DNA of 64,000 nucleotides from an uncultured Chloroflexia bacterium (GCA_963829555.1 CAWHJB010000011.1:68857-132856), one strand, 5' to 3'; positions 362 through 52,857 are shown, counted from the first letter of the stretch. Translations and numbers: made by a program. Notes: generated from the letters alone by a model not told the origin.

Positions 362-592
362 TTACCAGCTTCCAGCTTTGAATAAGCCAATCACAAAGCC
401 AACGAATAAACCCATTCCTGCCAGTAAAGCCACCTGCTGCCATGCTTTCAAATGCCGGACTTTTTCGGTCAGGATGTAAACCCGGGTGATGAGGTCTCCG
501 ATAACATTTGAATCTTTCATCATCGGTATCACTGCAATCCAGAAAGCGATCTCGAGACGTTGAGGAATTTGTGTAAATGTCATCTGTTTCAC
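362..592 (-). CDS. small hypothetical membrane protein (76 aa)
   Basis: ORF-track entry. Its start overlaps the stop of the upstream gene by 4 nt (ATGA coupling). It has two hydrophobic segments. No family recognised. Confidence 0.55.
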   Translation of the reverse strand: MKQMTFTQIPQRLEIAFWIAVIPMMKDSNVIGDLITRVYILTEKVRHLKAWQQVALLAGMGLFVGFVIGLFKAGSW

Positions 593-831
593 CTCGAAGT
601 TGTTACTTTAATGATTTTGCCATTTTCATCCGTCACCACGCGCAAATTCCGGGTCATCATCTTGCCGTCACCCAGGGTAACTTTCTTGGAGAAAATTACC
701 AGGTAGGTTTTGGACGGGTTGCGGGCGCCTTCGGGCGGCGTCTGAACCCTTGCTTTGGGTCGGACACCATCAAATTCCGGGTACCGGCGGTGGATCTGTT
801 TGGCGATCTGGTTGAGGATTTCAGCTTTCAT
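589..831 (-). CDS. hypothetical protein (80 aa)
   Basis: From ORF 589..906. I moved the start to ATG 829-831 (MKAEILNQ...) so that it does not overlap the ftsZ 3' end. No family recognised. Confidence 0.5.
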   Translation of the reverse strand: MKAEILNQIAKQIHRRYPEFDGVRPKARVQTPPEGARNPSKTYLVIFSKKVTLGDGKMMTRNLRVVTDENGKIIKVTTSR

Positions 832-895
832 AGTGAATGTATATTCGTTACCGGGAGGATCATGCCGACGTTGATAAGAAACGAACCATCGAGTG

Positions 896-2110
896 TTAGC
901 CTGCAAACCGGGCCTGGCGGCGCATGAAAGCGGGGATGTCCAGGTTCTGTTTCATAGCAGCCAGGTCAGACCCATTTGATGTCAATCCCGTGATGCTTCG
1001 GATCTTAGGTTGAGCAGGTTCTTTCTGGACGGCAGGTGCTTCGGTGATGAGTGGCTCATGGGGAGGTGCGGGCGGCAGGTCCTCTTTCTGGACGGGTTTA
1101 TTGACATTGGACATCGCTTCTTCCAGGGTTGGAGCGCCTAACCCGGTCATTACCAGGATAACCTGAACCCGGTCATCCATGCGGTCGTCGTTGATCACGC
1201 CCATTACGATTTCGGCCTGGTTGCCGGTTTGGGTCTGAATGTAGTTGAGGGATTCATAGACTTCGTTCAGGGTCAGATCCTGCCCACCGGTGAAGTTGAC
1301 GATCACGCCGGCAGCATTTTCAACCGGCACGTTATCCAGCAGCGGGTGATGGAGAGCCTGTTCGACGGCTTCGCGGGCTTTATTTTTACCCTGGCCATGC
1401 CCGATCGACATCAACGCGCCGCCGCCAAGCTGGATCAGCCTGCGAATGTGGGCAAAATCGACATTGATCATTCCAGGTTGGGTAATCAGTTCCGAGATCC
1501 CTTCCACCGATTGCCGCAGCACGTCATCGGCCAGGCAGAAGGCTGTTTCTAAAGTCAGCGTCTTTGGAGCCACATATAAAAGCTGATCGTTGGGAATAGA
1601 GATCAGGGTGTTGGTTTCTTTGCGGAGCCGCTCGAGACCTTCACGGGCGTTTTTCTGGCGGCGGCCCATTTCAAATGAGAATGGCGTCGTGACGATGGCG
1701 ATCGTGACAGCCCCGAGGGAACGGGCGATCTTTGCTGCAACTGGGATCGATCCGGTACCGGTGCCCCCGCCCATACCGGCCGTCAGAAAAACCATGTCAG
1801 CGCCTTTAAGCGCGGCTGCAATCTCGCGCCAGCTCTCTTCTGCCGCCGCTTTGCCCACAGCCGGATCACCACCTGCCCCTAATCCGCGGGTAACTTTTGG
1901 ACCGAGCTGGATTTTGACGTCCGCCGGGTTGGATTTGAGAGCCTGATGATCCGTATTGGCAGCAATAAATTCCATTCCGCGTAAGCCCAGCTCCATCATA
2001 CGGGCGACAGCATTGCTACCCCCACCACCCAGACCGAGAACTTTCAGCACCGGCTGGTGCATCTGATTAGATGGGGATTCAGGTCGTGCGGCGTTAGGAA
2101 ATTGGGACAT
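896..2110 (-). CDS. ftsZ: cell division protein FtsZ
   Basis: From ORF 896..2200. Start set at ATG 2108-2110 (MSQFPN...) behind the SD AGGAGAGG. Motifs: VLGLGGGGSNAV, the tubulin signature GMGGGTGTG, and the C-terminal DIPAFMRRQ peptide. Confidence 0.97.
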   Translation of the reverse strand: MSQFPNAARPESPSNQMHQPVLKVLGLGGGGSNAVARMMELGLRGMEFIAANTDHQALKSNPADVKIQLGPKVTRGLGAGGDPAVGKAAAEESWREIAAALKGADMVFLTAGMGGGTGTGSIPVAAKIARSLGAVTIAIVTTPFSFEMGRRQKNAREGLERLRKETNTLISIPNDQLLYVAPKTLTLETAFCLADDVLRQSVEGISELITQPGMINVDFAHIRRLIQLGGGALMSIGHGQGKNKAREAVEQALHHPLLDNVPVENAAGVIVNFTGGQDLTLNEVYESLNYIQTQTGNQAEIVMGVINDDRMDDRVQVILVMTGLGAPTLEEAMSNVNKPVQKEDLPPAPPHEPLITEAPAVQKEPAQPKIRSITGLTSNGSDLAAMKQNLDIPAFMRRQARFAG

Positions 2111-2138
2111 GTTTCTACCTCTCCTGGCAAAGATACGC

Positions 2139-3548
2139 TTATAAGTTATCCAATTGTGATGCAATACTCGTGCCATCTCCGCTGATCCGCTCGACTGCAC
2201 AGCCAGCGGCGCCTAATTTTAAGATAGTCTCATCATTGAAGATCAGCGGGTCTCCAATTACGGTCACTTTTTCAGCCAGTTTGGCTTCTTCCAGCGAATA
2301 GCCGATTGTGGGATGATACTTTCTTACAAAGTTGCGGATGATATCGAGATGCCATTCTGCAATACCCCATTCATACAACGGCAGCAGTAAATAATGACTG
2401 ATCGGATGTGGCTGGAGGGCTGCTGCGTCTTCAGCTGGTGAAGGTGTGATTGCCCCTTTGGATGCCCAGACCCGGGAGGGCGCCAGGCGTTTGGGCTGCT
2501 GAGCGACCCATTGACGAAAAGACGCAACCACCGGCAGGGTCGCGCCGTCCGCCTGATACCAGGCCTGAGATGCATGAGGGCTGTCTGCTTCTGATCCCAG
2601 TAACCAGAAATTGCATGCCAGAACTTCTGCGGGCACGGGTTCCAACTTCTCAACCTCAAATGGAGAGGCTTTTCCGGCTTGATTGGCCGGATTGGATTGG
2701 GCGCCATTGGCGCGCATTGCCTGGGCAATCTGTAAGTTTCGGGACATATGCGCAGCCCGGTCAACCGGCGGTAAGTCCTGCTCCGATTGGGCCCCCAGGG
2801 CGCTGCCGGCTTCCATCAGGATAATCGGCAAAGTTTGACCCAATTCAGCCTGTGCCAGCGTCAGATACCAGTCGAATATCCTCAAGCCGCGCTGATCCTG
2901 AGATCCGGTCGGGGTTGTGTAAGGACGTGCCCCCGGCCAGCGTTCCGGGCCGCCTGCGCCCCAGTTTAGCGGCCGGTTGCCGGCCCTGGCGTAAGCGCTT
3001 AATACCAGGCGATCGAGCAGTTCCGCCGAGCTCCGGCGCTTCATATTGTTGAGAGTAGCCCGCAAAAAGGCTGTGTCCCAATAATCTCCACCTGGCTCAA
3101 GGGGTGGGAGCACCGGGTACAGGCCGCTGGCGACCAGGCGGTCAGCCAGTGGAAGATAAATATCCAGAAACCGTTCGACCAGATCGCTTTGAGCCCAACT
3201 GGAAGCCGGCCAGGCACTGCGGGTATTGGGACGATCAAACAGGATTGCATAATGCACGCCCCAGCGGTTATAATTCTCGAACAGCAACTGTAAATTTTCC
3301 TGATCTAATTCTTTGTCCAACGGCAAACGGAAGTGTACAATCGGCTCGATCTGGGCGCCAAGTAATCCCTGAATAAACGGTTCAGGGATGGCTCGCTCAC
3401 TTGGAGCCTGGAGAACTATCCAGCTGGCGCCCATGGCCTGCAATTCTGGCAGCCAGGTATGTAGATCGCTCTCCCGGTAATGGTACGTATCAGGGAAATA
3501 ATGAAAGCCGATCCGGGTATTTTTGAGCGGGGAGGGTGTCAGTCGCAT
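2139..3548 (-). CDS. conserved hypothetical protein, possibly a TIM-barrel glycosidase-like fold
   Basis: Long ORF 2139..3557. In-frame ATG 3546-3548 (MRLTPS...) is preferred over TTG 3557. Coding-like composition throughout. The fold suggestion is weak and rests on the pattern of hydrophobic strands (WIVLQAP, ILMEAGS). Confidence 0.6.
   Translation of the reverse strand: MRLTPSPLKNTRIGFHYFPDTYHYRESDLHTWLPELQAMGASWIVLQAPSERAIPEPFIQGLLGAQIEPIVHFRLPLDKELDQENLQLLFENYNRWGVHYAILFDRPNTRSAWPASSWAQSDLVERFLDIYLPLADRLVASGLYPVLPPLEPGGDYWDTAFLRATLNNMKRRSSAELLDRLVLSAYARAGNRPLNWGAGGPERWPGARPYTTPTGSQDQRGLRIFDWYLTLAQAELGQTLPIILMEAGSALGAQSEQDLPPVDRAAHMSRNLQIAQAMRANGAQSNPANQAGKASPFEVEKLEPVPAEVLACNFWLLGSEADSPHASQAWYQADGATLPVVASFRQWVAQQPKRLAPSRVWASKGAITPSPAEDAAALQPHPISHYLLLPLYEWGIAEWHLDIIRNFVRKYHPTIGYSLEEAKLAEKVTVIGDPLIFNDETILKLGAAGCAVERISGDGTSIASQLDNL
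2160..2175 (-). promoter_or_regulatory. sigma-54 -24/-12 promoter candidate upstream of ftsZ
   Basis: The minus strand reads GA-TGGCAC-GAGTA-TTGCA-TC, an exact TGGCAC-N5-TTGCA. The -12 element lies 50 nt upstream of the ftsZ ATG, inside the last codons of the upstream gene. Confidence 0.7.
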
Positions 3549-3648: not shown

Positions 3649-3664
3649 TGCAAGAGATGTGCCA
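3649..3664 (-). promoter_or_regulatory. sigma-54 -24/-12 promoter candidate upstream of gene 2139..3548
   Basis: The minus strand reads CG-TGGCAC-ATCTC-TTGCA-TC (exact consensus). It is intergenic, about 100 nt upstream of ATG 3548. Confidence 0.7.
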
Positions 3665-3808
3665 CGGGCCAATTAGATTAAGGTATAATGAGTTTTGAAA
3701 TCAAGCAGGCGAGTGGTGCACCTGCTAACCGGGTTGCTATCCTCTTTGGTGCAATTATCTTGCCAGGTGGGTGATCGATGAAATCAGGGAAGAGAAAATC
3801 ATACAATC

Positions 3809-5258
3809 ATGCGTAGCGCCGCCAAGTCTCTTTCTTTACTCTTCTTGATCAGCGTCTTTATTGCTGCCTGCAGTCCGCTCGATGATTCCCACATTCCCCT
3901 ACGCACCCTTCCGGTAACGAAATATCAGGTAGATCCTTCTTTCCGTGAAATTTATGATTTTTATGGCGGGCGGGGCATTTTTGGTGAACCGATTACCCAG
4001 ATTCTGGAAAAAGGGAACCAAAAATTTCAATTTACCGTTTCTGGGCTGTGGGTATTCGACCAGAATGCCCCCGCCAACCAGAAAGTTCGCCTGGCTCCGC
4101 TTGGCGCATTGATGATCGATCCCGAACAACCTGTATCCCCACCGGAAGATCCCAACCAGTATTACGTCGACGGTCACATCATTTATGATGAGTTTGTCCA
4201 ACTTTATCGCCGGGTTGGTGGCGCGGCATTTGTTGGCAAGCCCCTGACAGAAGTGCGCTACAACTCGGAACGCGATCGATACGAACAATTCTTTGAGAAC
4301 CTGGGCTTTTTTATCGATCGCCAGGATGGCTCAGAAGCCCATTTGTTAGCCTATGGATTGTGGCTGTGTGATGATAAATGCCGGGCGTCTACCCCGGTTA
4401 ACGGCATCATCGATCATGTCCATCAGGTAAAACCCCCATTTTCACAGGTTGTCGAGAAGTGGGGGGCAAGTTTTACCGGCGACCCGCTCACCGATGCTTA
4501 CCCGAATGCCGATGGCAAACTGATCCAGGTGTTTGGGAATATGGTCTTGGTGGCAGATCCGATCGATCCCACCAATCCGGACCTGGTTTCGACCTTACCG
4601 GTCCTGCAGATCATCGGTCACGTACCCGATCCTCTCCAGCCGGCTACGGATAACCCCTTGTTGTATTTTTACCCAATTGAAGGTGACCGCGGCTATAACA
4701 TCCCCCTGGTGTATGTCGGTTACCTGGATTCTCGCGGCGGTTTCAAGACCTCCGGGCCGCCGCTCGATGAATTGACTCGCATCGATGACGATCTGTGGCG
4801 GCAGTGTTTTACAAATCTATGCCTTGATTTTGAACCCAACGCACCCGAACTCGCTGCAGATACGGCCTGCTCCTGTTGGCGTCGATTACTTAAATTTAAG
4901 CGCCCAGCCTTCACCGACGGCGGCGCCAGAAACCGGTCCTCAAAACCAGGTGACCGTCCAGATCTGGCAGAGTTTCCCGCAGGTCTCTTCAGGCCAGCAG
5001 CAGGAGATCTGGGTCTATGTGATGGAAAATGAAGAACCGCTTCCGGGAATCACGCCCGACCTGATCCTGACTTTCCCGGATGGCAGCCAGCAGCAGTTCG
5101 CTTTTCCACCGACCGGCCCCGATGGCCAGACCCACCTGCTGCTTCCGCCGATCACGGCTTCGAATGGGACCTTAATTCCCTACCAGGTATGTCTGCCCAC
5201 CTCGGCGAATGAGCGCTTCTGTAACCTGAAAGATTACCTGATTCTCAATTCACCTTGA
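3809..5258 (+). pseudogene. secreted lipoprotein of unknown function, reading frame interrupted once
   Basis: ORFs 3809..5032 and 4785..5258 overlap in different frames, and both look coding on their respective sides of about 4850-4880. The N-terminus has a signal peptide plus lipobox (LISVFIAAC). A single 1-nt indel would join them. Confidence 0.6.
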
Positions 5259-5374: not shown

Positions 5375-6538
5375 TTAGATCATCTCGGCCGGCAGGTTTG
5401 GAAGGTCAAGGTACAACTCGTCGCAAAACAGCATTGCCCGTTCGATCACATTGCGGAGCTCGCGAATATTGCCAGGCCAGTTGTGCCTGATCAAGGCTTC
5501 CATCGCCCGGGGGGTGACATCCTGAATGTTGAGGCCCATCGCGGGGTTCAGCTTGCGAATGAACAGGCCCACCAGGTCGGGGATATCCTCTTTACGCACT
5601 CGCAGGGGGGGCAGATCCAGATCGACCACCTTCAGACGGTAATAAAGGTCTTCCCGGAATTTACCTTCCTTCATCAAGGCTTGCAAGTCCCGGTTCGAGG
5701 CCGCCAGTATCTGAACGTCCACTTTGATCAGGTTGGTTCCGCCAACCCGCCGGAAAGCGCGCTCTTCCAGGGCCCGCAGCAATTTCGCCTGCATATCGAC
5801 CGGCATGGAAGAAATCTCGTCCAGGAACAGGATCCCGCCATCGGCCACTTCCATCAAGCCGGGCTTGCGTTTTTCCGCTCCCGTAAAAGCTCCCGCTTCG
5901 TAACCGAATAATTCGGATTCCATCACGGTGCTTTGCATGGCGGCGCAATTGATGGCAATGTAGGGTTTATTGTTGCGCGGCCCAAAACGGTGGATCGCGC
6001 TCGCCAATACTTCTTTCCCGGTGCCGGTTTCTCCGGTGATCAGAACGGAGACCGAGGCGCTGGCGGCCCTTTGGGCCTGTTCGATGACTGACTTCATGCG
6101 TGGGCTTTTTCCAATAATGAAATCAAGTTCTCCCTGCCGGGTGCTACGCAAATGGGCCAGCTCTCGTCTCAGCGCGACAGTTTCAGCTGCCCGTTGGATT
6201 GATTTTTCTAATTGCGCCAGCCGGATGGGTTTTTGCAGGAAATCCTGGGCGCCGTTTTTCATGGCGTCGACGGCCATATCGATATCGCCATAAGCGGTGA
6301 TCAGGATGATCGGTGGGCGGGCGGGCAGATGTGCAGTTTCCTCTAACAGGACCGGTCCATAGCCATCCGGTAGTTGCACATCCAACAGGATAATATCCGC
6401 TTCCCCGCGCTGCAGGCAGGTGCGAGCATCCTCCAGGGTGGCGACGCCATTAATCTCATAGCCGCGGGAGGTGAGAAATGTGCCGATATTCTGGCGGGCA
6501 TTATCTTCGTCATCAACAATTAATACTGTAGCGCTCAT
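5375..6538 (-). CDS. sigma-54-dependent response regulator (REC + AAA+), no C-terminal HTH
   Basis: Receiver domain (VLIVDDED...ILLDVQLPDG). AAA+ domain with Walker A GETGTGKE, the GAFTGA loop (EAGAFTGAEKR) and WPGNIRELRNVIERA. The protein ends 18 aa after that motif (387 aa), so there is no room for a Fis-type HTH. Confidence 0.92.
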   Translation of the reverse strand: MSATVLIVDDEDNARQNIGTFLTSRGYEINGVATLEDARTCLQRGEADIILLDVQLPDGYGPVLLEETAHLPARPPIILITAYGDIDMAVDAMKNGAQDFLQKPIRLAQLEKSIQRAAETVALRRELAHLRSTRQGELDFIIGKSPRMKSVIEQAQRAASASVSVLITGETGTGKEVLASAIHRFGPRNNKPYIAINCAAMQSTVMESELFGYEAGAFTGAEKRKPGLMEVADGGILFLDEISSMPVDMQAKLLRALEERAFRRVGGTNLIKVDVQILAASNRDLQALMKEGKFREDLYYRLKVVDLDLPPLRVRKEDIPDLVGLFIRKLNPAMGLNIQDVTPRAMEALIRHNWPGNIRELRNVIERAMLFCDELYLDLPNLPAEMI

Positions 6539-6718: not shown

Positions 6719-8741
6719 TTAACCTGCCGCTTCCTGGGCGGGAATTTCAACTGTAAACACGGTCCCACCCGGGAAGCTTTCAACCTGGATCCGGCCTTTA
6801 TGGGCTGTGATAATTCGTTTTGCGATCGGCAATCCCAGCCCCGTGCCGTCATGTTTGGTCGTATAAAATGGCTGGAATATTTTGTCCAGATTTTCTTTGG
6901 CGATACCTGGTCCCGTGTCAGCGATGCTGATTTTAACATAGGTTAAACCATGCGGGTAAGCGGCCTTATTCAATTTGACGACTAACTGGCCTCCGCTGCC
7001 GCGCATTGCCTGAACCGCATTGGTGATCAGGTTATTAAACACCTGCTCCAGCACCTTGGGGCTGCCCTCAACTTTGGGCAGGTTATCATCTGCCTGGATC
7101 CGGTATTGGACATTTTCTTTCACGATTCTGGGTTTCAAACGGTCGAGAAGCGATTCGAGCAGCCGTTTAAGATCGATGCTTTCCATATCGTATTCAGCGG
7201 TCCGGGCGAACGAGAGGACTTGCCGCATCTGGTCGGTGAGCCGGTCGCAATCGGTCTGGAGGCGCATGACCACTTCATGATTAGGATCAGGCTCTGGGAT
7301 GGTCATCTCTAAAAGCTGCAGGCCGGTGCTGATATTGTTGATTGGATTACGGACTTCGTGAGCAAAGACAGCCGTGAATTCCCCCAGAAAGGCCTGTTGC
7401 TCCAGCTGGCGGGTCCTGTCCTGATACTGTTCTTGCTCGGTCAGGTCTTCGAATTGAATAATGATGGCGGTCACCTGATCGCCGATCATGACGGGCATCG
7501 TGCGGAGTTGGGCCAGGAATGCCTCACCATTGCGGCGATAGAGCTGGAGCTTACCGACGTCGTAGGTCGGGCGGCCCTGTTGGGCAACTTGCAGGGCAGT
7601 TGAAAGCTCGCCTTTGCCGATGATCACATTTTCAATTGGGATCCCAACAACTTCACGGCTGGTATACCCAAGAGTCATTTCAGCGGACGGGTTGATTTTT
7701 GTGATGATGAGTTCCGGTGTTGTGATTAACAATCCGTCTTTGACCGAATTTACAGCCGTAGAATAAACCGCCAGTTCATTGGTATTCGCCTTTAACCTGG
7801 CTTCCAGGTTGTTCAGCAGGTCGTGTTGGCGGGTCAGGGTTGTGATCGCCGCGGCGATCAACTGTGCCAATCGCAGGATAAAGGGATTGGGCTGCTTTTC
7901 GGCTTCACCGATGACGATAAACCCGTCGATCTCGGGTAATCCGGTAGGCGCGGTGGCAATGAAGCTGTATTCCTTGGAGCGGGCGGTGCGATGCAGAACG
8001 GAGGTCATGCGTTTCCCTGCCGTCCAGAGCTGAGTCGAACGCATATTCACCAATTCTTGGGGGGGAAGCGATTCGGGTAAAACCGTGCCATCGCCGACGA
8101 AAACCTTGCGTTTCAAGTAACTCTCGGCCAGTGGTCGAACCAAATTGCCCCGATGTTTCTTCGTCGCTCATCGCTTCCAGGCGATAGTATCCGATAGCGC
8201 TGGCTTTGGTGAGATCGTGTGCCGCCTGGATCGCCCTGGATAAGGCTGTTTTATCCTCAGTCTCATTGATTGCGGCAGCCATCTGGTACAGATTTTGCCA
8301 GATTTGATCTTGAAACTGCAAATCAGCCAGCGGAAGCGTTTGTATTCTGGTTGGTTCGAATTGAACCAGTTCGAATCGATCGGACTGCCCGAGCGTATTG
8401 CGGTTAATTTGAACGGCAAGTTTGCTCCCGTTACGTTTGATCAACATGCCCTTGCTTGCATCTTGAACGCCGGGAACATCATCGGGGGAGGTGGATGGTT
8501 CTTCTGTTCCCGGGTGGGAGCGTCCAGTGAACAGTTCGTTAAATTTGAGCTGACATAATTCAGCCCGGGTATAGCTGGTCAGTGCAGCGACCCTGGTATT
8601 TGCAAAAAGAACCTGACCATTGTTCTTATCGATCAGGATCGATGCGGCCGGGAGAAGTTCGACAAGTGCCTCGATCTCCGCATGGGTTGGCCTGGTTTTA
8701 CGTCCGGGATTAAAGAAAGAGAGGGGCGATGGAGGTTTCAT
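6719..8741 (-). pseudogene. PAS/GAF sensor histidine kinase, frame interrupted once
   Basis: ORF 7905..8741 covers the N-terminal PAS region. ORF 6719..8143 covers PAS, HisKA (FAHEVRNP) and HATPase (DTGPGI...GTGLGL). The two frames meet near 8144-8167, next to the C4 run at 8148-8151. Confidence 0.85.
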
Positions 8742-8743
8742 TA

Positions 8744-10147
8744 TTATGGATGGGCTGCTCTTAATCTCGCTGGTAAGATCCCCTCCATTGTACGATATTT
8801 TGCGACAGTTCGGCGAGCAACCGGGTAACCTCTTTCACCCAGTATTTTCGCAATTTGGGTATCACTCAAAGGTTTGCGTTCTTTATCAACAATTTCGCGC
8901 AGGGCGGTGCGAACGTGCAGGCTGCGATCGAAGAGTTTCGAGATGGAGATAATCCGGCCGTTGGGGAGTTGGAGGGCTTTTCCTGACACTGCCCGCGAAA
9001 CGGTCAATTCGTGTACGCTCAGCTCTTCAGCAATTTTTGCCCTGGTTACCGGGATCAGGTGCGCGTCCCCTTTTAATAGAAAACGCCGCTGTAAAACGAC
9101 CATTCGGGCCATTAATCGCACCAGGGTGTGATTGCGCTGCTGTAAACACTTGACCAGGAGATTGGCTTGTTCAATATCTGCCTGCCATTGTTCGGCTTTA
9201 TCAGCTGGGGCGTCAGGCAATGCTTCCCGGAAAAGCGGGTTCACGCGCAGCCTCCCGGCATAAGGGGAAATGATTTCGACAACCAGCGGCGAGTCTGGCT
9301 TGTCGTTCAATCGTGAAACCAACACATCCGGGGTCTGGTAAACCGTGCGCGGCGCCGTGCTGTGGCGTTGATCGCCCCAGTGGGCACGAGCAGGATAGGG
9401 ATTCAGATTTTCGCTGATGAAGCGCGACAAATTCTGAGCCTGCTTGGTGGAGATTTTTAGCCTTCTCCCCAGCTCCATATAAGCGTGCCGGGAGAGTAGA
9501 TCCATGCAGGTGAGGATCGCTTCGGCTGCCAGGTGAGGCACCTGGTGATTTTCGGCCAACACATCCAGTTGAACCAATAAGGCTTGCTGAGGGCTCCGGG
9601 AACCAACGCCAACCGGCTCGGCCCGTTGGATTAACTGGAGAACGCTTTCCACTCGCGACAAGCGGACATGATGATACATTGCGATCTCAGCAATTTCGAT
9701 GGGCAGCAATCCGTCATCATCCAGGCTGGTGAGAATGTGGGCAGCTAATGGACGGTCTTCGGGCGCCAATTCAGCCGAGATCTGGCGCAGGATGAAGGAA
9801 GGCAGATCTTCAACTGCCGCGGCCCATTCTTCGTCGGGCATGTCCTCGCCCGAGCGCGTGCCAGAATAATTCCGGAAATCGTCGCGCGGCGAAATGAATA
9901 CGATCGGCTCCTCTGGTTCGGTTTTTGCTGGCTTACTGCAAACCGGGCAAGGGCCCTTTTCAGGCAATTTGCGATTACAATTTGGGCATGTGCGGGTTTC
10001 GATCAATTCCAGGGCCGGGTTGGAGGCCAGGTCTGCTTCGATCTTTTGACCCAGTTCAGCGGAGGTCAGTTCAAGCAGTGTCATGGTCTGAGCCAGATGA
10101 GCGGTGGTCATCGGCCGGAGTGCTTGGGATTGCGTTTGGATAATCAT
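8744..10147 (-). CDS. rpoN: RNA polymerase sigma-54 factor
   Basis: From ORF 8744..10195. Start set at ATG 10145-10147 (MIIQTQSQAL...) behind the SD GGGAGTA. It has a Gln/Leu-rich region I and the RpoN box ARRTVAKYR near the C-terminus. It also carries an unusual CPNC-X9-CPVC insertion. Confidence 0.95.
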   Translation of the reverse strand: MIIQTQSQALRPMTTAHLAQTMTLLELTSAELGQKIEADLASNPALELIETRTCPNCNRKLPEKGPCPVCSKPAKTEPEEPIVFISPRDDFRNYSGTRSGEDMPDEEWAAAVEDLPSFILRQISAELAPEDRPLAAHILTSLDDDGLLPIEIAEIAMYHHVRLSRVESVLQLIQRAEPVGVGSRSPQQALLVQLDVLAENHQVPHLAAEAILTCMDLLSRHAYMELGRRLKISTKQAQNLSRFISENLNPYPARAHWGDQRHSTAPRTVYQTPDVLVSRLNDKPDSPLVVEIISPYAGRLRVNPLFREALPDAPADKAEQWQADIEQANLLVKCLQQRNHTLVRLMARMVVLQRRFLLKGDAHLIPVTRAKIAEELSVHELTVSRAVSGKALQLPNGRIISISKLFDRSLHVRTALREIVDKERKPLSDTQIAKILGERGYPVARRTVAKYRTMEGILPARLRAAHP

Positions 10148-10183
10148 ATTTACTCCCTGCTTACTTGGTTCTATTATACCTGT

Positions 10184-10199
10184 TGCAAGAAGCATGCCA
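10184..10199 (-). promoter_or_regulatory. sigma-54 -24/-12 promoter candidate upstream of rpoN
   Basis: The minus strand reads G-TGGCAT-GCTTC-TTGCA-ACA. The -12 element is 37 nt upstream of the rpoN ATG 10147. Confidence 0.6.
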
Positions 10200-10265
10200 C
10201 ATTAATATTTCGGGGGGGCTTTAGGAGATCCTGCAGCCGAGGCTATATGTGGGGGTAATTTTCTG

Positions 10266-10292
10266 CACTACTCCAGAGATTCCGGAAGACCC
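10266..10292. repeat. dispersed ~30-nt unit
   Basis: CACTACTCCAGAGATTCCGGAAGACCC. Compare copy 28409-28439. Confidence 0.7.
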
Positions 10293-10326
10293 GTTTCGGG
10301 TTTAGGCTGCACGATATATTTGTAGA

Positions 10327-10374
10327 TTTGGAGTTCAATTTGTGCGGTCTCAGCTGCACAAATTGAACTCCAAA
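10327..10374. repeat. long perfect palindrome (singleton in this window)
   Basis: TTTGGAGTTCAATTTGTGC-(10 nt)-GCACAAATTGAACTCCAAA, in the divergent rpoN/proline-dehydrogenase intergenic region. Confidence 0.9.
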
Positions 10375-10492
10375 AATAATTTTCTACTACATCTTCGTGC
10401 ACCCCGGGTTTATGCTACAATTCAGGTTATCCGGTGCTGTGGTCCTTGTGGAGAAGCTCAGGCTTTTACCGAGGAACCATAACCATTCAATT

Positions 10493-10543
10493 GGGTCTCT
10501 GGGAAACTCTGCAGGAGAGTCCCCCCAGGAATTGCCAAAGAAC
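10493..10543. repeat. dispersed ~55-nt unit, copy 1
   Basis: GGGTCTCTGGGAAACTCTGCAGGAGAGTCCCCCCAGGAATTGCCAAAGAAC. Confidence 0.85.
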
Positions 10544-10632
10544 TATTCAATCTGTCAATCGGATTCGATCCGATACATATGCTTCATGACTAAATGGTTC
10601 TTTCGCTAAATACCTTTAGGAAAAAGAGCAAA

Positions 10633-10681
10633 TGTAATGTTCATTTTTATGCGGCGTCGCCGCACAAAAATGAACATTACA
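10633..10681. repeat. long palindrome (singleton)
   Basis: TGTAATGTTCATTTTTATGCGGCG-TC-GCCGCACAAAAATGAACATTACA, with one mismatch. Confidence 0.9.
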
Positions 10682-10796
10682 ATCACTTTTCAAAGAAAAA
10701 GGACTTAGCGAGAAAATCACGAAAAGGGTTCATTCGGAAACTGTGTGAGACACCACCCGATGAATTCCCAGAGATCTTCTGAAAGGTTGCACAAAA

Positions 10797-37860: not shown

Positions 37861-40800
37861 TTATCGAACGGCAATCCGGTTGCGCCCGGCGTGTTTGGCA
37901 TCATAGAGCGCCTGATCGGCCAGATCGATCAGGGCAGCCAGGTCCGGTGTGCCTGAATGATTGCTGGCAATCCCCAGGCTGATCGAAATATTGAATAAAA
38001 AGCCTCTTGCCGTGAATGGTGTGTGGCTGATTTCCTTGCGAATCCGCTCGGCAATTGCAATCGCCTCCACGGCATTTGTTTCTGGCACCAGGATTGTAAA
38101 TTCTTCGCCCCCATATCGGGCCAGGATGTCGATATCGCGGGTGATGGCTTGCATTCGTTGGGCCAATTCAATCAGCACTTCATCGCCGGTAGCGTGGCCG
38201 AAATTGTCATTCACCCGTTTGAAATGATCGATGTCAATCATGATGGCAGTGATTGGACGTTTAAACCGCAGTGCTCGAAAAAATTCGCGCTGGCCCAACT
38301 CAAACAGGTGCCGGCGATTAAATATCCCCGTCAACGGGTCGGTGATGGCCAATTGTTGAACGGTTTGGAACAGGTACGTATTGGACAACGCAATGGCTGC
38401 ATAAGATGCCAGCATTTCTATTAAATACTGGTCTTCGGATGAATAGGCAAAAGGCGAATAGCTTTGGGTGGATAATACCCCCATAACCTGATTGCCCAGG
38501 CGCATTGGCACAGCCAGAACCGAGCGAACGGTGTCTTTTGAACCAAAATGAATTCCCTGGACCGGCGTGGCTGGGTTCTCAAGGTCCGGGATATTCAAAG
38601 ATCGTCCGGTTTGAAGAACATAACCGCTCAGGCCCTGCTCGATTGGTACCCGGCGGGAAGGAGTTCTCCCGCCTCGATCAACCAGGTAGACGGCCTCGAT
38701 TTCATTCTTTTCGTAATCGACCAGAGAAATCACAAATGATTCACAAACCGTCAGCTGGCTGGCAGCTTTGTGGATCGCGAAATAAATATTCTCCGGCTCG
38801 AGATTCGCGGTGACAATTTCCTGGCTGATCGAATGTAAGATAGCGCGTCTTTCAGCAGCTTCTCTAGCCGATTGGTACAAACGGGCATTCTCTACGGCGA
38901 TGGCTGCTTGTTGAGCGAAAAGGTTCAACAACTTCTGATCGTCCTGGGTAAATTTCCGCTTTTGGTGGAGATCGACGATACCAATACATCCCACCAGGCG
39001 ACCACCAATCAATAAAGGCGTCGCCAGGGCGGCCTGCCAGGGTTCATCTGGAAGATTCGGTATGCGACCCAGCCAATTCGGATAATTATTCAGTAAAAGC
39101 GGCTGCAGGGAGGCGGCTACCTTTCCAAGGATGCCCTCCCCAATATCCAAACGATTGCCGGATCGATCGATGCCCATGTTGTGGCTGGCGACAATGACAA
39201 GATCGTTCTGATTTTCCTGATACAAGGCCAAATCGCCCCCGCTGGCATTCAACAAGCCGATTGCCCGGATCAGAATCGCCCGCAGTAATTTCGATAGCTC
39301 CAGTTCGGAAGAAATATCCGTCATCGTCGCTCGCAGTGCATCCAATTGGCGGACCCGGCCCTGTTCAGCCATGTACATACGTGCGTTTTCAATTGCAATA
39401 GCTACCTGGTCGGCGAACAGGGACACCAGATGGGAGTCTTCTTCGTTGTAAAAATTCTCTTTATGGTGGTCGAGTACCAGCACGCCAATCAAATGCTCGT
39501 GGACAATCAGCGGAACCCCCAGCCAGGAGCGAATAGGTTGGTGTTGGGCAGTTTGCATACCTGGAAATTTGATGCTGGCGCTGCCGGTAAAATAGGGCTG
39601 GCGAGTTTCGATAACAAGCGTGTTGGGGTTGTCACCCGGGATCGGGAAGCGCATCCCAATAACCGCGTCTTGATCCAACCATCCGCGCCCGCCTACGATG
39701 ACGAGTTCATGGTCTTCGTAAATTTGCACCGAAGCGCTGTCATAAGGGATCACTTTTTCGAGCTGAACCAGGATGCGTTCAATCGCTTCTTCCTGGTCGA
39801 GCGTGCTGACAATCGCAGAGGTTGTCTCGCGCAGGGTCTCTGCCTGTTCGCGCTGTTTCCTTTCAAAGTCGAGTAAGCGATTGTTTTCAATCACTATTGC
39901 GGCCTGATTTGCAATGGCTACTAACAGCTCCTGATCCTGAAGTGTAAATTGGTTTTGATCGGATCGCTTAATGGCGGTGATGGTCCCAAGTTTTTTCGTC
40001 TGAAAAAGCAAAGGGGCTACCAATATGGAACCGGATTGGGTCTTGATTCTCCTTTGCCGAACACTGGCTGATTCCCTCGCATCCGGTTGGCAACCATCGG
40101 AAATGGCCGGCCGAGCTTCCCGCAGACACCAGCCGGTCAACCCATTCATCAACTCCTGGTAAGAAACGACTTCAATGTGAGATTTTCCCTCGCCGCCCAC
40201 AAATTGCTTGAGAATGGTTTCTCGTTTCGTGTCTAAAAGTATCAGGCTTACCCGGTCGCTGTTCAGCACCTGAGCCACTTTCGCCAAAATAGATTGCAGG
40301 GCGGTATCCAAAGTGCCAATGCTGATCAATGTGCGGCTGATGTCATACAAAGTTTCAGTGATGGCCAGTCGCTCGGTTATTTTTTGTTTGGCTGCTTTCT
40401 CTTCGCTGATATCTCTAACATGAACGACCAGCCGGGGTTCCCCTGAAATATTCATCAGCCGGCTGCGTACCTTGGAGGGGAAGACGCTCCCATCCTTGCG
40501 TCTTCCCAGGCTTTCCTTGACAATTTCTTGATCTTCCAGGATGGTTTTGAACTCGTACATAAGCGCTTCATGCTGCTCATCCGGAACCAGTTCGGTAACA
40601 TTAATGGCCTGGAATTCACTCAATGTATAATCGTAGGTTTCACAAGCAGCGGCATTGCAATCCAGGATGTTTCCTGCCAAATCCTCAATAAAAATACATT
40701 CGTTGGTCGATTCAAATAAGGTTCGGTATTTAAGTTCACTTTCCTCGACTGCTTTTTGGGTATTGATATATGCGCTGATCTGGTGATTGATGATGATTTC

Positions 40801-41787
40801 GCCAATTTCCTTATCAGACGAATCCGTTAACTGCCTGACCAGCATCTCATAATAGTTGTGATTGTGTTCATGCTGCCAGATGACTTCATGATGGGTGTTT
40901 TTAGCCACTTGAAACCCATTGTAAAAACTCTGGAGAGCTTGAACTGCATGTTCCAATAATTGTCCGGCATAAAGTTTGCCCTCATCATCGATCATTTGAT
41001 TGGCGGCTGGATTAAAACTGATGATCTGTTCATCCATATCCAGAATGATGATCGCTGCACTGAGGTTGTTGATAATCGTATGATAAGAAATGGGTAAATT
41101 TTTGAAAGCTGATTTGCGGAACAATATCCAGGCGATCACGCATCCAGATACAGCAAAGATTGCCGGCGTAGGATCGATTTGGAACGGGCGGAAGATGCTG
41201 GTGATAAACAGCAAGTTGGCGACCATTGGCAGACTAATGGCTGACACCAATGCCAGGATTGGAAATTGGTAATACTTCGGGCTGGAAAACGAGAATTTTA
41301 TTAGAATGAGATTTGCAGCCAGCAATAAGCCGTAAGAATACAAGGCATGTACCCAGAATAGCGGCTTGAATATGGTCAGCCAGTTGGCATGCAGGATTCC
41401 TGGGCTGATATCGACATTGACCCAAAGGAGATGGTGTTGCGCATTGGTCCATGCCAGGATGACTGTTGCCAGCGGAATGATCGCAAGCACAGCCAGTTTC
41501 TTAAAGCTGATCCACTCAGACTGACCTGTGTAAATTAAAGCAATCAGGAACCAGTTGGTTGGGATCAAAACAATCCCGATGTACTCAAACTGAATTGCAA
41601 AAAGCTTCAGGTTTGCCTGGGTAGCGCTGATCTCGATCAGGTTGCCCAATGACCAGATTGCGGCGCCAAGCATAAAGAAAATAAAGGGCTTTGCCGCTGG
41701 TCTGTGGGAATTGCGAGCGCCCAGGATTGCCAGGGTTAAAGCAATCCCACAGGTAATGGTCAAAGAGATAATCATCGGATCAGACAT
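37861..41787 (-). CDS. multidomain diguanylate cyclase (N-terminal 7-TM sensor, PAS, several GAF domains, GGDEF)
   Basis: 1308 aa. About 230 aa of TM helices, then PAS regions and at least four GAF-like blocks. C-terminal GGDEF domain (RYGGEEFTIL) with an RxxD-like I-site context. Confidence 0.9.
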   Translation of the reverse strand: MSDPMIISLTITCGIALTLAILGARNSHRPAAKPFIFFMLGAAIWSLGNLIEISATQANLKLFAIQFEYIGIVLIPTNWFLIALIYTGQSEWISFKKLAVLAIIPLATVILAWTNAQHHLLWVNVDISPGILHANWLTIFKPLFWVHALYSYGLLLAANLILIKFSFSSPKYYQFPILALVSAISLPMVANLLFITSIFRPFQIDPTPAIFAVSGCVIAWILFRKSAFKNLPISYHTIINNLSAAIIILDMDEQIISFNPAANQMIDDEGKLYAGQLLEHAVQALQSFYNGFQVAKNTHHEVIWQHEHNHNYYEMLVRQLTDSSDKEIGEIIINHQISAYINTQKAVEESELKYRTLFESTNECIFIEDLAGNILDCNAAACETYDYTLSEFQAINVTELVPDEQHEALMYEFKTILEDQEIVKESLGRRKDGSVFPSKVRSRLMNISGEPRLVVHVRDISEEKAAKQKITERLAITETLYDISRTLISIGTLDTALQSILAKVAQVLNSDRVSLILLDTKRETILKQFVGGEGKSHIEVVSYQELMNGLTGWCLREARPAISDGCQPDARESASVRQRRIKTQSGSILVAPLLFQTKKLGTITAIKRSDQNQFTLQDQELLVAIANQAAIVIENNRLLDFERKQREQAETLRETTSAIVSTLDQEEAIERILVQLEKVIPYDSASVQIYEDHELVIVGGRGWLDQDAVIGMRFPIPGDNPNTLVIETRQPYFTGSASIKFPGMQTAQHQPIRSWLGVPLIVHEHLIGVLVLDHHKENFYNEEDSHLVSLFADQVAIAIENARMYMAEQGRVRQLDALRATMTDISSELELSKLLRAILIRAIGLLNASGGDLALYQENQNDLVIVASHNMGIDRSGNRLDIGEGILGKVAASLQPLLLNNYPNWLGRIPNLPDEPWQAALATPLLIGGRLVGCIGIVDLHQKRKFTQDDQKLLNLFAQQAAIAVENARLYQSAREAAERRAILHSISQEIVTANLEPENIYFAIHKAASQLTVCESFVISLVDYEKNEIEAVYLVDRGGRTPSRRVPIEQGLSGYVLQTGRSLNIPDLENPATPVQGIHFGSKDTVRSVLAVPMRLGNQVMGVLSTQSYSPFAYSSEDQYLIEMLASYAAIALSNTYLFQTVQQLAITDPLTGIFNRRHLFELGQREFFRALRFKRPITAIMIDIDHFKRVNDNFGHATGDEVLIELAQRMQAITRDIDILARYGGEEFTILVPETNAVEAIAIAERIRKEISHTPFTARGFLFNISISLGIASNHSGTPDLAALIDLADQALYDAKHAGRNRIAVR

Positions 41788-41894
41788 GCCAACCAGGCGC
41801 GTGTCCTCAACTCATTTAAGGTGAGGAATCAGAATAATTATCAATTCTAACCAGTTTACAGAGGGGGAAACCTACCAAATATGCAAAATGTTCT

Positions 41895-43322
41895 TTAAGC
41901 TGCGACCGTGCGGTCTCTTCCGTCGGATTTTGCCCGGTATAAAGCCTGGTCGGCCAGTTCCAACAGGCTTTTCAAATCCCCCATATCATCGGTGATACCG
42001 GCGATGCCCAGGCTGATGCTCACCGCGATGCGGGCTATCGGTGTTTTGAGCGCGGTTGTCTTTATCCTTTCACGCAGCCGATCCGCGACAATCTGGCCTC
42101 CCGACATGTCAATTTCCGGCAGGAGCACAACGAATTCATCCCCGCCATAACGCCCGATGATATCTACCTTGCGGACGCTGTTCGTCAGGGCAACTGCAAC
42201 CAATTTGAGAACATCATCGCCGACCGAATGCCCAAAGTTATCGTTAACTTGTTTGAAGAAATCGATATCGCCCATGATCGCGGTCAAGGGTCTCCCAAAT
42301 CGGTGAGCACGCTCAATTTCCCGTTCGCCCAGTTCGAACAATCCTCGGCGATTATATAAGCCGGTCAGTGCATCGGTAATCGCCAGTTTTTGAACTTCCG
42401 TGTGCAATTGCGCATTGTGGATCGCGGCCGTCACGGTGGCTGCAAAGCTGACCAGCAAACTCAAATCTGACTGGCTGAAAGCCGATTCGGTATTCGCCTC
42501 GAGGGATACTGCCCCTAATACATCCCCTTCCAGGATTAAAGGCGCAACGATTGCGGATTGCGACAATTCCAGTTCATCAGCTTTTTCCTGAACATCATTG
42601 GGCAGGTTTCCGTTTTCTATTTTGGGAATCAGTAAAGGTTTCCGGGTCCGCACGGATTGGGCCACAAAGCCGCGGCTGGTCTGGGTGGACAGCCTTTGAA
42701 TCCTGGGATTATGCTCTCCATATCCAAGCGTGGCGCGCATTTCCAGTTTGCCGGTATCCTTGGCAATGATGTGCAGGGTACCCTTATGGGCTGCCGGGAT
42801 GGCATTCGTCGCTGCATCCAGGATTTGATTCAAGAGATCTTCGAGGTTAAGCGTCGTCAGTAAAGCCCGTGTGGCTGTGTACAGCCCCTCGATCTTGCGG
42901 TTGACATATTTTTGGGCGATATCTTGAACTTGCTGTTCATTAAAGGGAACACCGACCGCCATCACTTCCTGCAAATTCCCATCCTCAGAAAATTTACCAG
43001 ATAATTTCCAATGCAGGATGTCGTGATGGCTTTCAGAGAATTTATCCGTTCGGTTAACTTCGAGCTGGGGGTGATCTTCGACCAGAGCGGTAAAATGGGT
43101 TTGAATTTCGGTGTGCTGTTCCTTTGGAAGCGCCTTAAAGACATTCAAACCAATAATTTTCTCAGCCGGGATGGCATAATATTCCTCAAATGCCGGATTT
43201 ACGTAAAGAACGGTCCCATCTGGCTTTAGCTGGCAGATGAGTTGGGTCTGATCTTCGACGATCGCACGGAACTGCGCGTCGTCATCGTGCTTTCGTCTGT
43301 CATTATGGAAAGATCGCAGCAT
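41895..43322 (-). CDS. PAS-GAF-GGDEF diguanylate cyclase
   Basis: 475 aa. C-terminal GGDEF domain (RYGGDEFVVLL) preceded by LTGLYNRRG. Confidence 0.9.
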   Translation of the reverse strand: MLRSFHNDRRKHDDDAQFRAIVEDQTQLICQLKPDGTVLYVNPAFEEYYAIPAEKIIGLNVFKALPKEQHTEIQTHFTALVEDHPQLEVNRTDKFSESHHDILHWKLSGKFSEDGNLQEVMAVGVPFNEQQVQDIAQKYVNRKIEGLYTATRALLTTLNLEDLLNQILDAATNAIPAAHKGTLHIIAKDTGKLEMRATLGYGEHNPRIQRLSTQTSRGFVAQSVRTRKPLLIPKIENGNLPNDVQEKADELELSQSAIVAPLILEGDVLGAVSLEANTESAFSQSDLSLLVSFAATVTAAIHNAQLHTEVQKLAITDALTGLYNRRGLFELGEREIERAHRFGRPLTAIMGDIDFFKQVNDNFGHSVGDDVLKLVAVALTNSVRKVDIIGRYGGDEFVVLLPEIDMSGGQIVADRLRERIKTTALKTPIARIAVSISLGIAGITDDMGDLKSLLELADQALYRAKSDGRDRTVAA

Positions 43323-43418
43323 TATATCCTGGGCCCCGGATGATTTGATTATTCCAAAGTGACCTGATTATAATCTATCATCGTATCTACTTCGACAATA
43401 TCACATTAAAAAAAGATA

Positions 43419-43473
43419 CCCAAATTTTGATGTGTGTGGCGGGAGTTGCCCGCCACACACATCAAAATTTGGG
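43419..43473. repeat. palindromic element, family C copy 1
   Basis: CCCAAATTTTGATGTGTGTGGCGGG-AGTTG-CCCGCCACACACATCAAAATTTGGG. Confidence 0.95.
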
Positions 43474-43500
43474 CTAATCGTAATAGTTGGCTGGTTGAAG

Positions 43501-44052
43501 TCAGGCTACCACGCGGTGGGCAAACGCGACCACATCCCGTTTCGCCAGCGCCATCGGTACCCGGATGACTCCCATCGCAGGGATTGCTGGCTGGCTGATC
43601 GCGACTTCGTAGATCATGGTGTAGCGTTCGGAAGTAACATCCAGGTAGCGTTCAAGGTTGGTCTGGTTGGACATTCGCAGGGTACCATCAAACCGGAAAC
43701 TGCCGACCAGCGCGGTGATTGGTTCCATTTTTCGGTTGGGCTCATCAGGATCATAATCCAGGGGTTCGCGATCCGGGGGTTTGATGTGAAACGCGAACAC
43801 CTGCGGCGTGGGAATGTGCAATTCGGCATAACTGTATGGCTTGATCGGCCCTGCGCCACCAAGGGTGATCACCTGGGCCTGCCGCAGGGTGATATATTGG
43901 GGGGCCATGGCGGTACGCAGCCAGACACTGACTTTGATCGCCTCCCTGGTGTACAGGTCTCCCCAAACCATCGTATTGAGTGTATAGATCATCACGGGGG
44001 TTAGCTTTTCCCCGGCGGCTGGTCCAGTAGAAGTGCTGGGGATTTGATCCAT
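43501..44052 (-). CDS. hypothetical protein (183 aa) behind a sigma-54-type promoter
   Basis: From ORF 43501..44253. Start set at ATG 44050-44052 (MDQIPST...), which has the SD AAAGGAG 8 nt upstream. The longer ORF would include the promoter motif (44166-44181) and a repeat element. No family recognised. Confidence 0.6.
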   Translation of the reverse strand: MDQIPSTSTGPAAGEKLTPVMIYTLNTMVWGDLYTREAIKVSVWLRTAMAPQYITLRQAQVITLGGAGPIKPYSYAELHIPTPQVFAFHIKPPDREPLDYDPDEPNRKMEPITALVGSFRFDGTLRMSNQTNLERYLDVTSERYTMIYEVAISQPAIPAMGVIRVPMALAKRDVVAFAHRVVA

Positions 44053-44165
44053 GTCCACGGCTCCTTTCGCAAGCGGGTGCAAGGTTTCAACTGAGAAGCT
44101 CAACTTGACGGAGGTCCAGGCGCCTGCCGGGTTGAGCTGAGTCTCTTCAATCTTGGTGTTTACAT

Positions 44166-44181
44166 TGCAACCGTCGTGCCA
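44166..44181 (-). promoter_or_regulatory. sigma-54 -24/-12 promoter candidate upstream of hypothetical gene 43501..44052
   Basis: The minus strand reads CC-TGGCAC-GACGG-TTGCA-AT (exact consensus). It lies 114 nt upstream of ATG 44052. Confidence 0.7.
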
Positions 44182-44248
44182 GGGACCATTCCACGGAGTT
44201 TCCAAAGACTCTTTCCTGATTCTCTGGGAAATTCTGTGGGAGGGTACC
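44182..44248. repeat. inverted pair of ~30-nt units directly upstream of the sigma-54 promoter candidate at 44166-44181
   Basis: GGGACCATTCCACGGAGTTTCCAAAGACTC ... TCTCTGGGAAATTCTGTGGGAGGGTACC. Confidence 0.75.
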
Positions 44249-44402
44249 ACCACAGAAATACCGATAGATTCCCTTTCCTGAACGGCTGCATGAACGGTTA
44301 AGAGATTATAATGAGCCTGGTCAAAATTTGGATAAATTCCTCAAATCGGGAACTATCCATCATGATACCAGACAGGTTATCAATCTTATTTCGGAGAACA
44401 AC

Positions 44403-52464: not shown

Positions 52465-52567
52465 CGGATAGCTTCCATGTAGCAGTAAGGTTGACTGACA
52501 GGCTGCGGCGACTGATTGCTCTGATAACGGACAGAAGCAATATGAACGTTGATACAATGAAGGTCAT

Positions 52568-52583
52568 TGCAATGCTTATGCCA
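52568..52583 (-). promoter_or_regulatory. sigma-54 -24/-12 promoter candidate upstream of the acylase gene
   Basis: The minus strand reads AC-TGGCAT-AAGCA-TTGCA-AT. It lies 104 nt upstream of ATG 52464. Confidence 0.6.
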
Positions 52584-52709: not shown

Positions 52710-52764
52710 GGGGACTCTGGGAAACTCTGCGGAAGAGCACCATCCCAGGAATTCTCAAAGAACC
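52710..52764. repeat. dispersed ~55-nt unit, copy 3
   Basis: GGGGACTCTGGGAAACTCTGCGGAAGAGCACCATCCCAGGAATTCTCAAAGAACC. Confidence 0.85.
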
Positions 52765-52857
52765 AATGCTTGCATCACGAAGATGATTCTGCTATAGTGA
52801 TATCGAAGGGGATAATCGATAAATCCTGACGGCGCCTTTCTAAACTGGAGGTGGACG

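Follow-up and report, generated by a model that had tools for sequence, protein, structure and literature searches.

A predicted sigma-54 promoter for ftsZ embedded in the final codons of the preceding gene in Anaerolineales

Sigma-54 promoters are silent unless an activator consumes ATP, and are therefore used for tightly switched functions. Promoters described for ftsZ include sigma-70 and sigma-S promoters of E. coli ftsQAZ, sigma-A and sigma-H promoters of B. subtilis ftsAZ, a sigma-73 promoter with CtrA/DnaA control in Caulobacter and the developmental promoter ftsZ2p in Streptomyces. To our knowledge, all known ftsZ promoters belong to the sigma-70 family and none needs an ATP-hydrolysing activator. 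They resemble the arrangement described here in that several occur in tandem and some lie inside upstream genes.

The CtcB-CtcC two-component system of Chlamydia is similar to FlgS-FlgR of Helicobacter. Like the locus described here, the Chlamydia CtcB-CtcC-sigma-54 system combines a two-component kinase with a REC-AAA+ activator devoid of a DNA-binding domain (Soules et al. 2020, PMC7482065). CtcC is most similar to AtoC and presumably needs no enhancer to act on the holoenzyme (PMC7482065). Its regulon concerns membrane and T3SS genes of the late stage (PMC7482065), and ftsZ is missing from Chlamydia. Here, unlike in Chlamydia, a single operon next to ftsZ comprises rpoN, kinase and activator, and a sigma-54 site precedes rpoN.

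Intragenic sigma-54 promoters are known from E. coli, where they lie within nagB for nagE, within rlmD for relA and within yqeC for yqeB (Bonocora et al. 2015, PMC4591121). The likeness to the present case is a conserved, sense-oriented -24/-12 element inside the coding sequence of the upstream gene, which in E. coli drives the downstream gene (PMC4591121). In E. coli the 5'UTRs measure 360-760 nt and the promoters need the enhancer-binding NtrC (PMC4591121). In contrast, the Anaerolineales sites occupy the last codons of the upstream gene, have predicted UTRs of about 14-140 nt and no conserved enhancer, and have ftsZ as the candidate target.

In Myxococcus and Geobacter, sigma-54 is either essential or required for cells to divide normally (PMC2725144), and the same tie is attributed to Caulobacter (Brun & Shapiro 1992, as cited in PMC2725144). 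These cases link sigma-54 to core growth or division, but no direct ftsZ promoter is reported; in Geobacter, dcuB and nitrogen assimilation are given as the reason why sigma-54 is essential, and the Geobacter regulon paper does not mention ftsZ (PMC2725144). Francke et al. 2011 found no enrichment of the cell-division COG category near sigma-54, its activators or its promoters, and recorded sigma-54 in 'some Chloroflexi' (PMC3162934). A 2025 cross-phylum survey of sigma-54 regulons mentions neither Chloroflexi nor ftsZ as a target, and our search of the literature on sigma-54/RpoN with ftsZ, Chloroflexi or Anaerolinea returned no prior description of a sigma-54-dependent ftsZ. The features reported below appear to be new in combination: ftsZ as the target, order-wide conservation, embedding in coding sequence, and linkage to a module of rpoN and an activator lacking a DNA-binding domain.

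We analysed a 64-kb stretch of DNA (the window), which FtsZ homology places in the Anaerolineales, Chloroflexota. The original prediction for this stretch was a sigma-54 promoter directly before ftsZ. Comparative evidence from the motif, its conservation, synonymous sites and linked sigma-54 and activator genes supports that reading. With a probability of about 0.8, positions 2160-2175 would be an active sigma-54 (RpoN) promoter that serves ftsZ and is embedded in the final codons of the gene before it, here called X.

Sigma-54 sites in the window

Both strands of the window were searched for exact TGGCAC-N5-TTGCA. The minus strand carries three copies, at 2160-2175, 3649-3664 and 44166-44181, and the plus strand none. 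By chance 0.04 are expected (about 0.03 in the original prediction), and three matches occurred in 0 of 100 shuffled sequences. Relaxing the pattern to TGGCAY and TTGCW brought in 10184-10199 and 52568-52583, giving five sites against 0.28 expected. The three exact copies and two TGGCAT variants of the original prediction were thereby all re-found on the coding strand before start codons, with gaps of 36-113 nt. A PWM trained solely on sites from relatives, with a cut-off of 12 bits, gave six matches at or above this value, again exclusively on the minus strand. The sixth, at 3750-3765, reads TGGCAAGATAATTGCA. All six lie on the coding strand, 5' of minus-strand genes.

The best PWM match in the window (26.8 bits) is the -24/-12 element TGGCACGAGTATTGCA at 2160-2175 on the minus strand, hereafter P_ftsZ. 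It stands in sense orientation 49 nt from the ATG (2110) of ftsZ (896-2110, minus strand; 404 aa; Tubulin/FtsZ GTPase domain, 1.9e-43; FtsZ_C, 8.3e-27), confirming the exact consensus and the good Shine-Dalgarno (SD) sequence originally noted there. P_ftsZ is not intergenic. It sits within the final 13 codons of X (2139-3548, minus strand; 469 aa, a conserved hypothetical protein), in the frame GAT GGC ACG AGT ATT GCA, which encodes D G T S I A (codons D458-A463) within the C-terminus ...S G D G T S I A S Q L D N L stop. The GG and GC dinucleotides are exactly 10 nt apart, and the match to a YTGGCACG-N4-TTGCW-like consensus is exact. Judged by its sequence, P_ftsZ is a member of the canonical sigma-54 promoter class and carries every defining feature that can be computed. 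Standard sigma-54 geometry, with C2161 taken as -12, predicts a transcription start at 2147-2151 (about 2149) on the minus strand, 8-10 nt before the X stop codon. The predicted 5'UTR of about 39 nt contains the ftsZ SD AGGAGAGG (2118-2125, minus strand). No terminator-like or sigma-70-like site was found in the stretch between the P_ftsZ motif and ftsZ.

The other five sites precede four genes on the same strand. Proximal P_X, TGGCACATCTCTTGCA (3649-3664, 22.1 bits), lies 100 nt before the X ATG (3548), and distal P_X (3750-3765; one mismatch, 19.7 bits) lies 201 nt before X, with an identical sequence at the equivalent position in two related loci (L083 and L086). P_rpoN, the TGGCAT variant TGGCATGCTTCTTGCA (10184-10199, 22.4 bits), is 36 nt from the rpoN ATG (10147). 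The exact site at 44166-44181 scored 13.7 bits and stands 113 nt before an ATG at 44052; the gene encodes a hypothetical protein of 183 aa and is followed by two GGDEF (diguanylate cyclase) genes. The TGGCAT variant at 52568-52583 (20.2 bits) is located 5' of a gene for a penicillin-amidase/PvdQ-like acylase, about 103 nt from its likely ATG at 52464; this start is uncertain, as the first start given by the ORF finder is a TTG at 52557. A 50-nt palindromic repeat, GTTCTTTGGnAATTCCTGGG...GCAGAGTTTCCCAGAG, occurs near three other sigma-54 sites. It was absent from the rpoN upstream regions of relatives and had no occurrence in 970 kb of their loci; as it is not kept in relatives, it was rejected as a conserved enhancer/UAS.

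Conservation in Anaerolineales and linkage to rpoN

Conservation upstream of ftsZ orthologs had been set beforehand as a test of the promoter, and the site passed it. Among 80 ftsZ loci from species-representative Anaerolineales genomes (FtsZ 54-74% identical), a GG/GC-anchored site with at most 2 mismatches and at most 250 nt upstream was present before ftsZ in 65, of which 46 were exact; about one locus is expected by chance. An exact copy stands 47 nt before ftsZ in the locus of an Anaerolinea thermophila MAG (L040). Allowing up to 3 mismatches raised this to 74 of 80, the added loci forming a Brevefilum-like clade with the sequence CGGAATAGAAATTGCA. Ten of the 15 relatives without a site at the stricter threshold keep CGGAAT-N5-TTGCA, and the other five have lost the ftsZ-proximal site but retain P_X. 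In essentially all 80 loci, X immediately precedes ftsZ. A second site ahead of the preceding gene, which the original prediction had read as a possible tandem arrangement, also held up: in 68 of the 70 loci that could be evaluated, the 300 nt before X contain a site. These include the clades devoid of P_ftsZ, so that no evaluable locus is without a site ahead of ftsZ. The related loci, 909 kb in all, contain 68 exact matches, all on the ftsZ strand, and 65 of them fall at the P_ftsZ or P_X position.

The distance between the site and the start codon is bounded in relatives. The gap from TTGCA to ATG has a minimum of 24 nt before ftsZ and 23 nt at P_X; a minimum of about 24 nt provides just enough space for the roughly 11 nt to the transcription start plus an SD. 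An SD-like motif was found inside the predicted 5'UTR in 74 of 74 relatives. This geometry bears on the possibility that P_ftsZ is a conserved site that binds the sigma-54 holoenzyme unproductively, and instead blocks or attenuates read-through from P_X, or acts as a sink for sigma-54. In E. coli, binding at most intragenic sigma-54 sites was not accompanied by transcription that could be detected in the conditions used (PMC4591121), and sigma-54 is known to form stable closed complexes. However, the sites always point in the sense direction toward ftsZ, and a roadblock needs neither the minimum gap nor an SD within the predicted UTR. The same motif is also found between genes, where promoters classically lie, ahead of X and of rpoN. 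We therefore regard a non-productive site as unlikely.

The window also encodes candidate partners for these promoters. The rpoN gene (8744-10147, minus strand; 467 aa) encodes a sigma-54 with Sigma54_AID, CBD and DBD domains and a canonical RpoN box, ARRTVAKYR, at residue 444. It scored 252 bits against an NCBIfam equivalog cut-off of 277, and is thus somewhat divergent. Directly downstream, at 6719-8741 (minus strand), lies a PAS-HisKA-HATPase sensor kinase gene, split by a 1-nt indel at about 8117. In a 99.5%-identical assembly (L086) the kinase is intact at 673 aa, and that assembly has different indels elsewhere; an assembly error is therefore more likely than a pseudogene, and the latter was rejected. 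The kinase sequence contains no TM-like segment, which suggests a soluble, cytoplasmic sensor.

The third gene of the module (5375-6538, minus strand) encodes an NtrC-family activator (bEBP) with REC and AAA+ domains, the latter with GAFTGA and lid (Sigma54_activat, 2e-70). GAFTGA is at residue 216 and the protein ends at residue 387, right after AAA_lid_14. No C-terminal HTH DNA-binding domain was detected in the activator, and NtrC and AtoC profiles matched only to about position 381 of about 463. Its orthologs (386-396 aa) likewise have no HTH family. By domain content this is a CtcC/FlgR-type bEBP, for which activation would be enhancer-independent. It is the sole bEBP in the window. In 22 ftsZ-centred loci the activator gene lies just upstream of X-ftsZ, and its product, 65-80% identical, is better conserved than X or FtsZ.

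The order rpoN-PAS-HK-bEBP-X-ftsZ is contiguous and co-directional in four relatives (L033, L036, L037 and L061). Six rpoN-centred loci were obtained through RpoN homologs of 63-84% identity, while a metagenome scan with RpoN gave two distant matches only. Five of the six carry rpoN-HK-bEBP, then one or two divergent hypothetical genes, then X-ftsZ; in L084 a short-chain dehydrogenase gene additionally separates the module from X-ftsZ. In the sixth (L089) the module is on a separate contig, and the ftsZ locus of the same MAG (L026) keeps both sites. A sigma-54 site was found 35-43 nt before rpoN in 7 of 7 rpoN-centred loci, counting the near-identical L086.

This distribution also weighs on a reading of the element as a site for another protein, or as an RNA-level signal in the X-ftsZ mRNA for processing or translational coupling. 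The site is indeed transcribed within the X mRNA, and in many relatives the ftsZ SD overlaps the X stop region. Yet the sigma-54 consensus is matched base for base with GG-N10-GC spacing, and the element co-localises with rpoN and bEBP genes. It is also present before rpoN and X, where no mRNA need contain it, and a search of Rfam families gave no match at the gathering threshold or at E<=1. Another protein or an RNA signal is accordingly very improbable.

Codon use at the embedded motif

As P_ftsZ lies in coding sequence, codon use at the motif was compared with that at control columns. Across X plus ftsZ, GGC accounts for 38% of Gly codons, GCA for 21% of Ala, ATT for 37% of Ile, CTT for 13% of Leu and GTT for 26% of Val. 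The motif Ala is encoded by GCA in 69 of 72 sequences (binomial p ~7e-43), compared with 14/76 and 16/74 at equally invariant Ala columns nearby. For the motif Gly, GGC is used in 60 of 73, against 34/76 and 37/74 at control Gly columns. The motif Ile is ATT in all 51 cases. Where Ile is replaced, the codon is CTT in 8/8 (Leu), GTT in 8/10 (Val) and TTT in 2/2 (Phe). The xTT form is kept through these changes, and the TT of TTGCA thus survives amino-acid replacement. Replacement of Thr by Ile or Met yields the tolerated TGGCAT. The Thr wobble position, which is the first base of the spacer, varies (ACA 22, ACG 22, ACT 4, ACC 3); it is a purine in 44 of 51 and avoids the otherwise preferred ACC, which fits TGGCAC-R.

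Constraint was also compared along the whole gene. In the 51 conserved four- or six-fold-degenerate columns of X, the third position carries a median of 0.14 bits of information. Constraint is strongest at A463 (1.61 bits) and G459 (1.11 bits), which correspond to the -12 and -24 elements. Scanning the whole of X gave no other island of synonymous-site conservation. This pattern of codon use indicates that selection at the motif is acting on DNA, not on protein, and P_ftsZ is very probably a selected sigma-54 site.

Could the motif instead be a by-product of a conserved peptide, G-D-G-T-S-I-A, combined with codon bias or shared ancestry and without function at the DNA level? Close X homologs show no variation at G459, T460 and A463, and hardly any at G457 and I462. 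However, the synonymous positions that carry consensus bases are near-fixed, whereas the Gly and Ala control columns follow background, and the motif recurs in non-coding DNA before X and rpoN. Together with the swaps at the Ile and Thr codons described above, the synonymous-site controls effectively refute this explanation.

A sigma-70-type promoter with TTGCA(A/T) as its -35 box is scarcely credible: the window's P_X is readable as TTGCAT-N17-CATAAT and a TATAAT-like box lies downstream of the rpoN site, but a -10-like hexamer (at least 4/6, 16-18 nt downstream) is not enriched (6.1% of 132 sites against a 4.7% background), many sites are just 23-27 nt from the ATG and so leave no room for a -10 box, transcription start and SD, and such a reading gives no account of the TGGCAC that is conserved exactly 5 nt upstream.

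Proposed control of ftsZ and the nature of X

With P_ftsZ as an active sigma-54 promoter, we propose the following mechanism. P_X (3649-3664, with the weaker 3750-3765) would drive X and, by read-through, ftsZ. The sigma-54 holoenzyme (E-sigma54) is predicted to sit as a closed complex at both P_X and P_ftsZ. The soluble PAS kinase would phosphorylate the REC domain of the activator, at the Asp in IILLDVQLPDG. Because the activator has no DNA-binding domain, it would engage the holoenzyme from solution and without an enhancer, in the manner of CtcC. ATP hydrolysis would then open the promoter, and transcription starting near 2149 would yield a leader of about 39 nt with the ribosome-binding site of ftsZ. 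The sigma-54 site of the rpoN-kinase-activator operon may provide feedback through autoregulation. This architecture appears to be ancestral to the order Anaerolineales and maintained throughout it.

Consistent with this scheme, the synonymous-site scan gave no conserved candidate in X for an enhancer about 80-150 bp upstream of P_ftsZ. The lack of a second conserved island in X argues against a conserved enhancer anywhere in the gene, as anticipated for an activator devoid of a DNA-binding domain. By analogy with CtcC (PMC7482065), membership of the sigma-54 promoter class does not strictly require an enhancer.

Division in these bacteria is probably gated by a signal-dependent ATPase switch. 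An additional sigma-70 promoter may also feed ftsZ. A stricter version, in which ftsZ in Anaerolineales has no sigma-70 promoter at all and depends wholly on sigma-54 and a single activator without a DNA-binding domain, under control of a cytoplasmic PAS kinase, is possible but doubtful. If it were true, a signalling switch that depends on ATP and feeds back on rpoN would license septation in these filamentous bacteria, and Anaerolineales would have sigma-54 as an essential factor. An order-wide, selected pair of sigma-54 promoters on ftsZ, linked to rpoN and a two-component activator, would represent a different logic of division control. It would offer an entry point to the control of septation in filamentous Chloroflexota, which is barely studied, and a clean natural case of a promoter overlapping coding sequence with measurable constraint at synonymous sites.

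The upstream gene merits attention in its own right. X had no match in Pfam or NCBIfam, and each named protein among its 2150 homologs is a 'hypothetical protein'. A sequence search against the PDB returned DARPin matches only, which were judged spurious. The AlphaFold model (pLDDT 83.7) shows a (beta/alpha)8 barrel with a small C-terminal alpha/beta domain. The best solved match in a fold search was 4zn2, a Pseudomonas glycosyl hydrolase, with a TM of 0.42-0.47. The model is suggestive only of a glycoside-hydrolase-like fold, and as the TIM-barrel similarity is weak we make no functional claim for X beyond 'GH-like'. As a large, uncharacterised GH-like family that is always paired with ftsZ, X is a candidate division or cell-wall factor.

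Gene X and the genes around ftsZ

Gene X (2139–3548(-)), a conserved hypothetical gene, founds a large uncharacterised family of 2150 homologs. No Pfam or NCBIfam match was obtained for it, and modelling predicted a glycoside-hydrolase-like TIM barrel fold for its product. In Anaerolineales it always lies immediately 5' of ftsZ, filling a slot that ftsA usually holds in other bacteria. We regard its product as a candidate division or cell-wall factor. The MAG CAWHCC01 carries two X–ftsZ loci on different contigs (L015 and L017), with sigma-54 sites at each, the result of either a genuine duplication or a bin of mixed origin.

Directly 3' of ftsZ, a small gene without a family match (589–906(-), 80–105 aa) is kept in 70 of 80 relatives. 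Next toward coordinate 1 come a membrane-like ORF of 73 aa and, after it, a protein of ~257 aa. All three are possibly co-transcribed division partners.

Sigma-54-type sites beyond ftsZ

An extra sigma-54-type site, AGGCAC-N5-TTGCA, was seen in relatives past coordinate 1 of the window, both in rpoN-centred loci (L083:20777–20792 and L086:12747–12762) and in an ftsZ locus (L010:8560). It lies ~45 nt 5' of a small gene preceding a TPR protein of ~1880 aa, and both genes come just 3' of ftsZ and the small genes that accompany it. In L086 the TPR protein gene is followed by a peptidase-C25-like gene. The whole ~20 kb region looks like a sigma-54 regulon island. Within the window, the 44166 site precedes a hypothetical gene and then two large PAS/GAF-GGDEF diguanylate cyclase genes (region 37861–44181(-)), at 41895–43322(-) and, with a 7TM sensor domain, at 37861–41787(-). 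This arrangement hints that the same regulon reaches c-di-GMP signalling.

The rpoN upstream region and a palindromic repeat

The rpoN promoter alone shows a conserved TATAAT-like box (GGTATAAT, GATAGAAT or TTTATAAT) 5–7 nt 3' of its -12 element (window 10170–10180(-); about 9967–9980 in the relatives' loci L083, L084 and L085). The box may be an overlapping sigma-70 -10 element, in which case sigma-54 binding would be repressive, giving negative autoregulation of rpoN. Alternatively, it could be mere start-site context.

The rpoN/proline dehydrogenase intergenic region (10148–10796) spans 650 nt, compared with roughly 150–260 nt in relatives. Inside it are a perfect 19-bp hairpin (10327–10345/10356–10374) and an imperfect 62-nt inverted repeat (10595–10656/10658–10719), which may be inserted palindromic elements.

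An imperfect palindrome of ~50 nt, GTTCTTTGGnAATTCCTGGG...GCAGAGTTTCCCAGAG, occurs 5' of three sigma-54 sites (10497–10545, 44222–44270 and 52715–52765, all (-)), at varying distances of ~300, ~40 and ~130 nt; a weaker copy lies at 10740–10790. The palindrome was not found in rpoN upstream regions of relatives, which makes it a genome-specific repeat rather than a conserved enhancer.

Single-nucleotide indels

A 1-nt insertion at about 8117 (within 8100–8120) splits the PAS-histidine kinase into two overlapping ORFs (7905–8741 and 6719–8143). A pseudogene is disfavoured, since the kinase is unbroken (673 aa) in L086, a 99.5%-identical assembly that has 1-nt indels elsewhere, truncating rpoN and shifting the tail of X (equivalents of window 9074 and 2225). 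The indels in both assemblies are probably long-read assembly errors. A further indel position in the window is 4847. The divergent gene 3809–5032 encodes 407 aa in the window versus 482 aa in L086, the same kind of indel effect as the kinase split.
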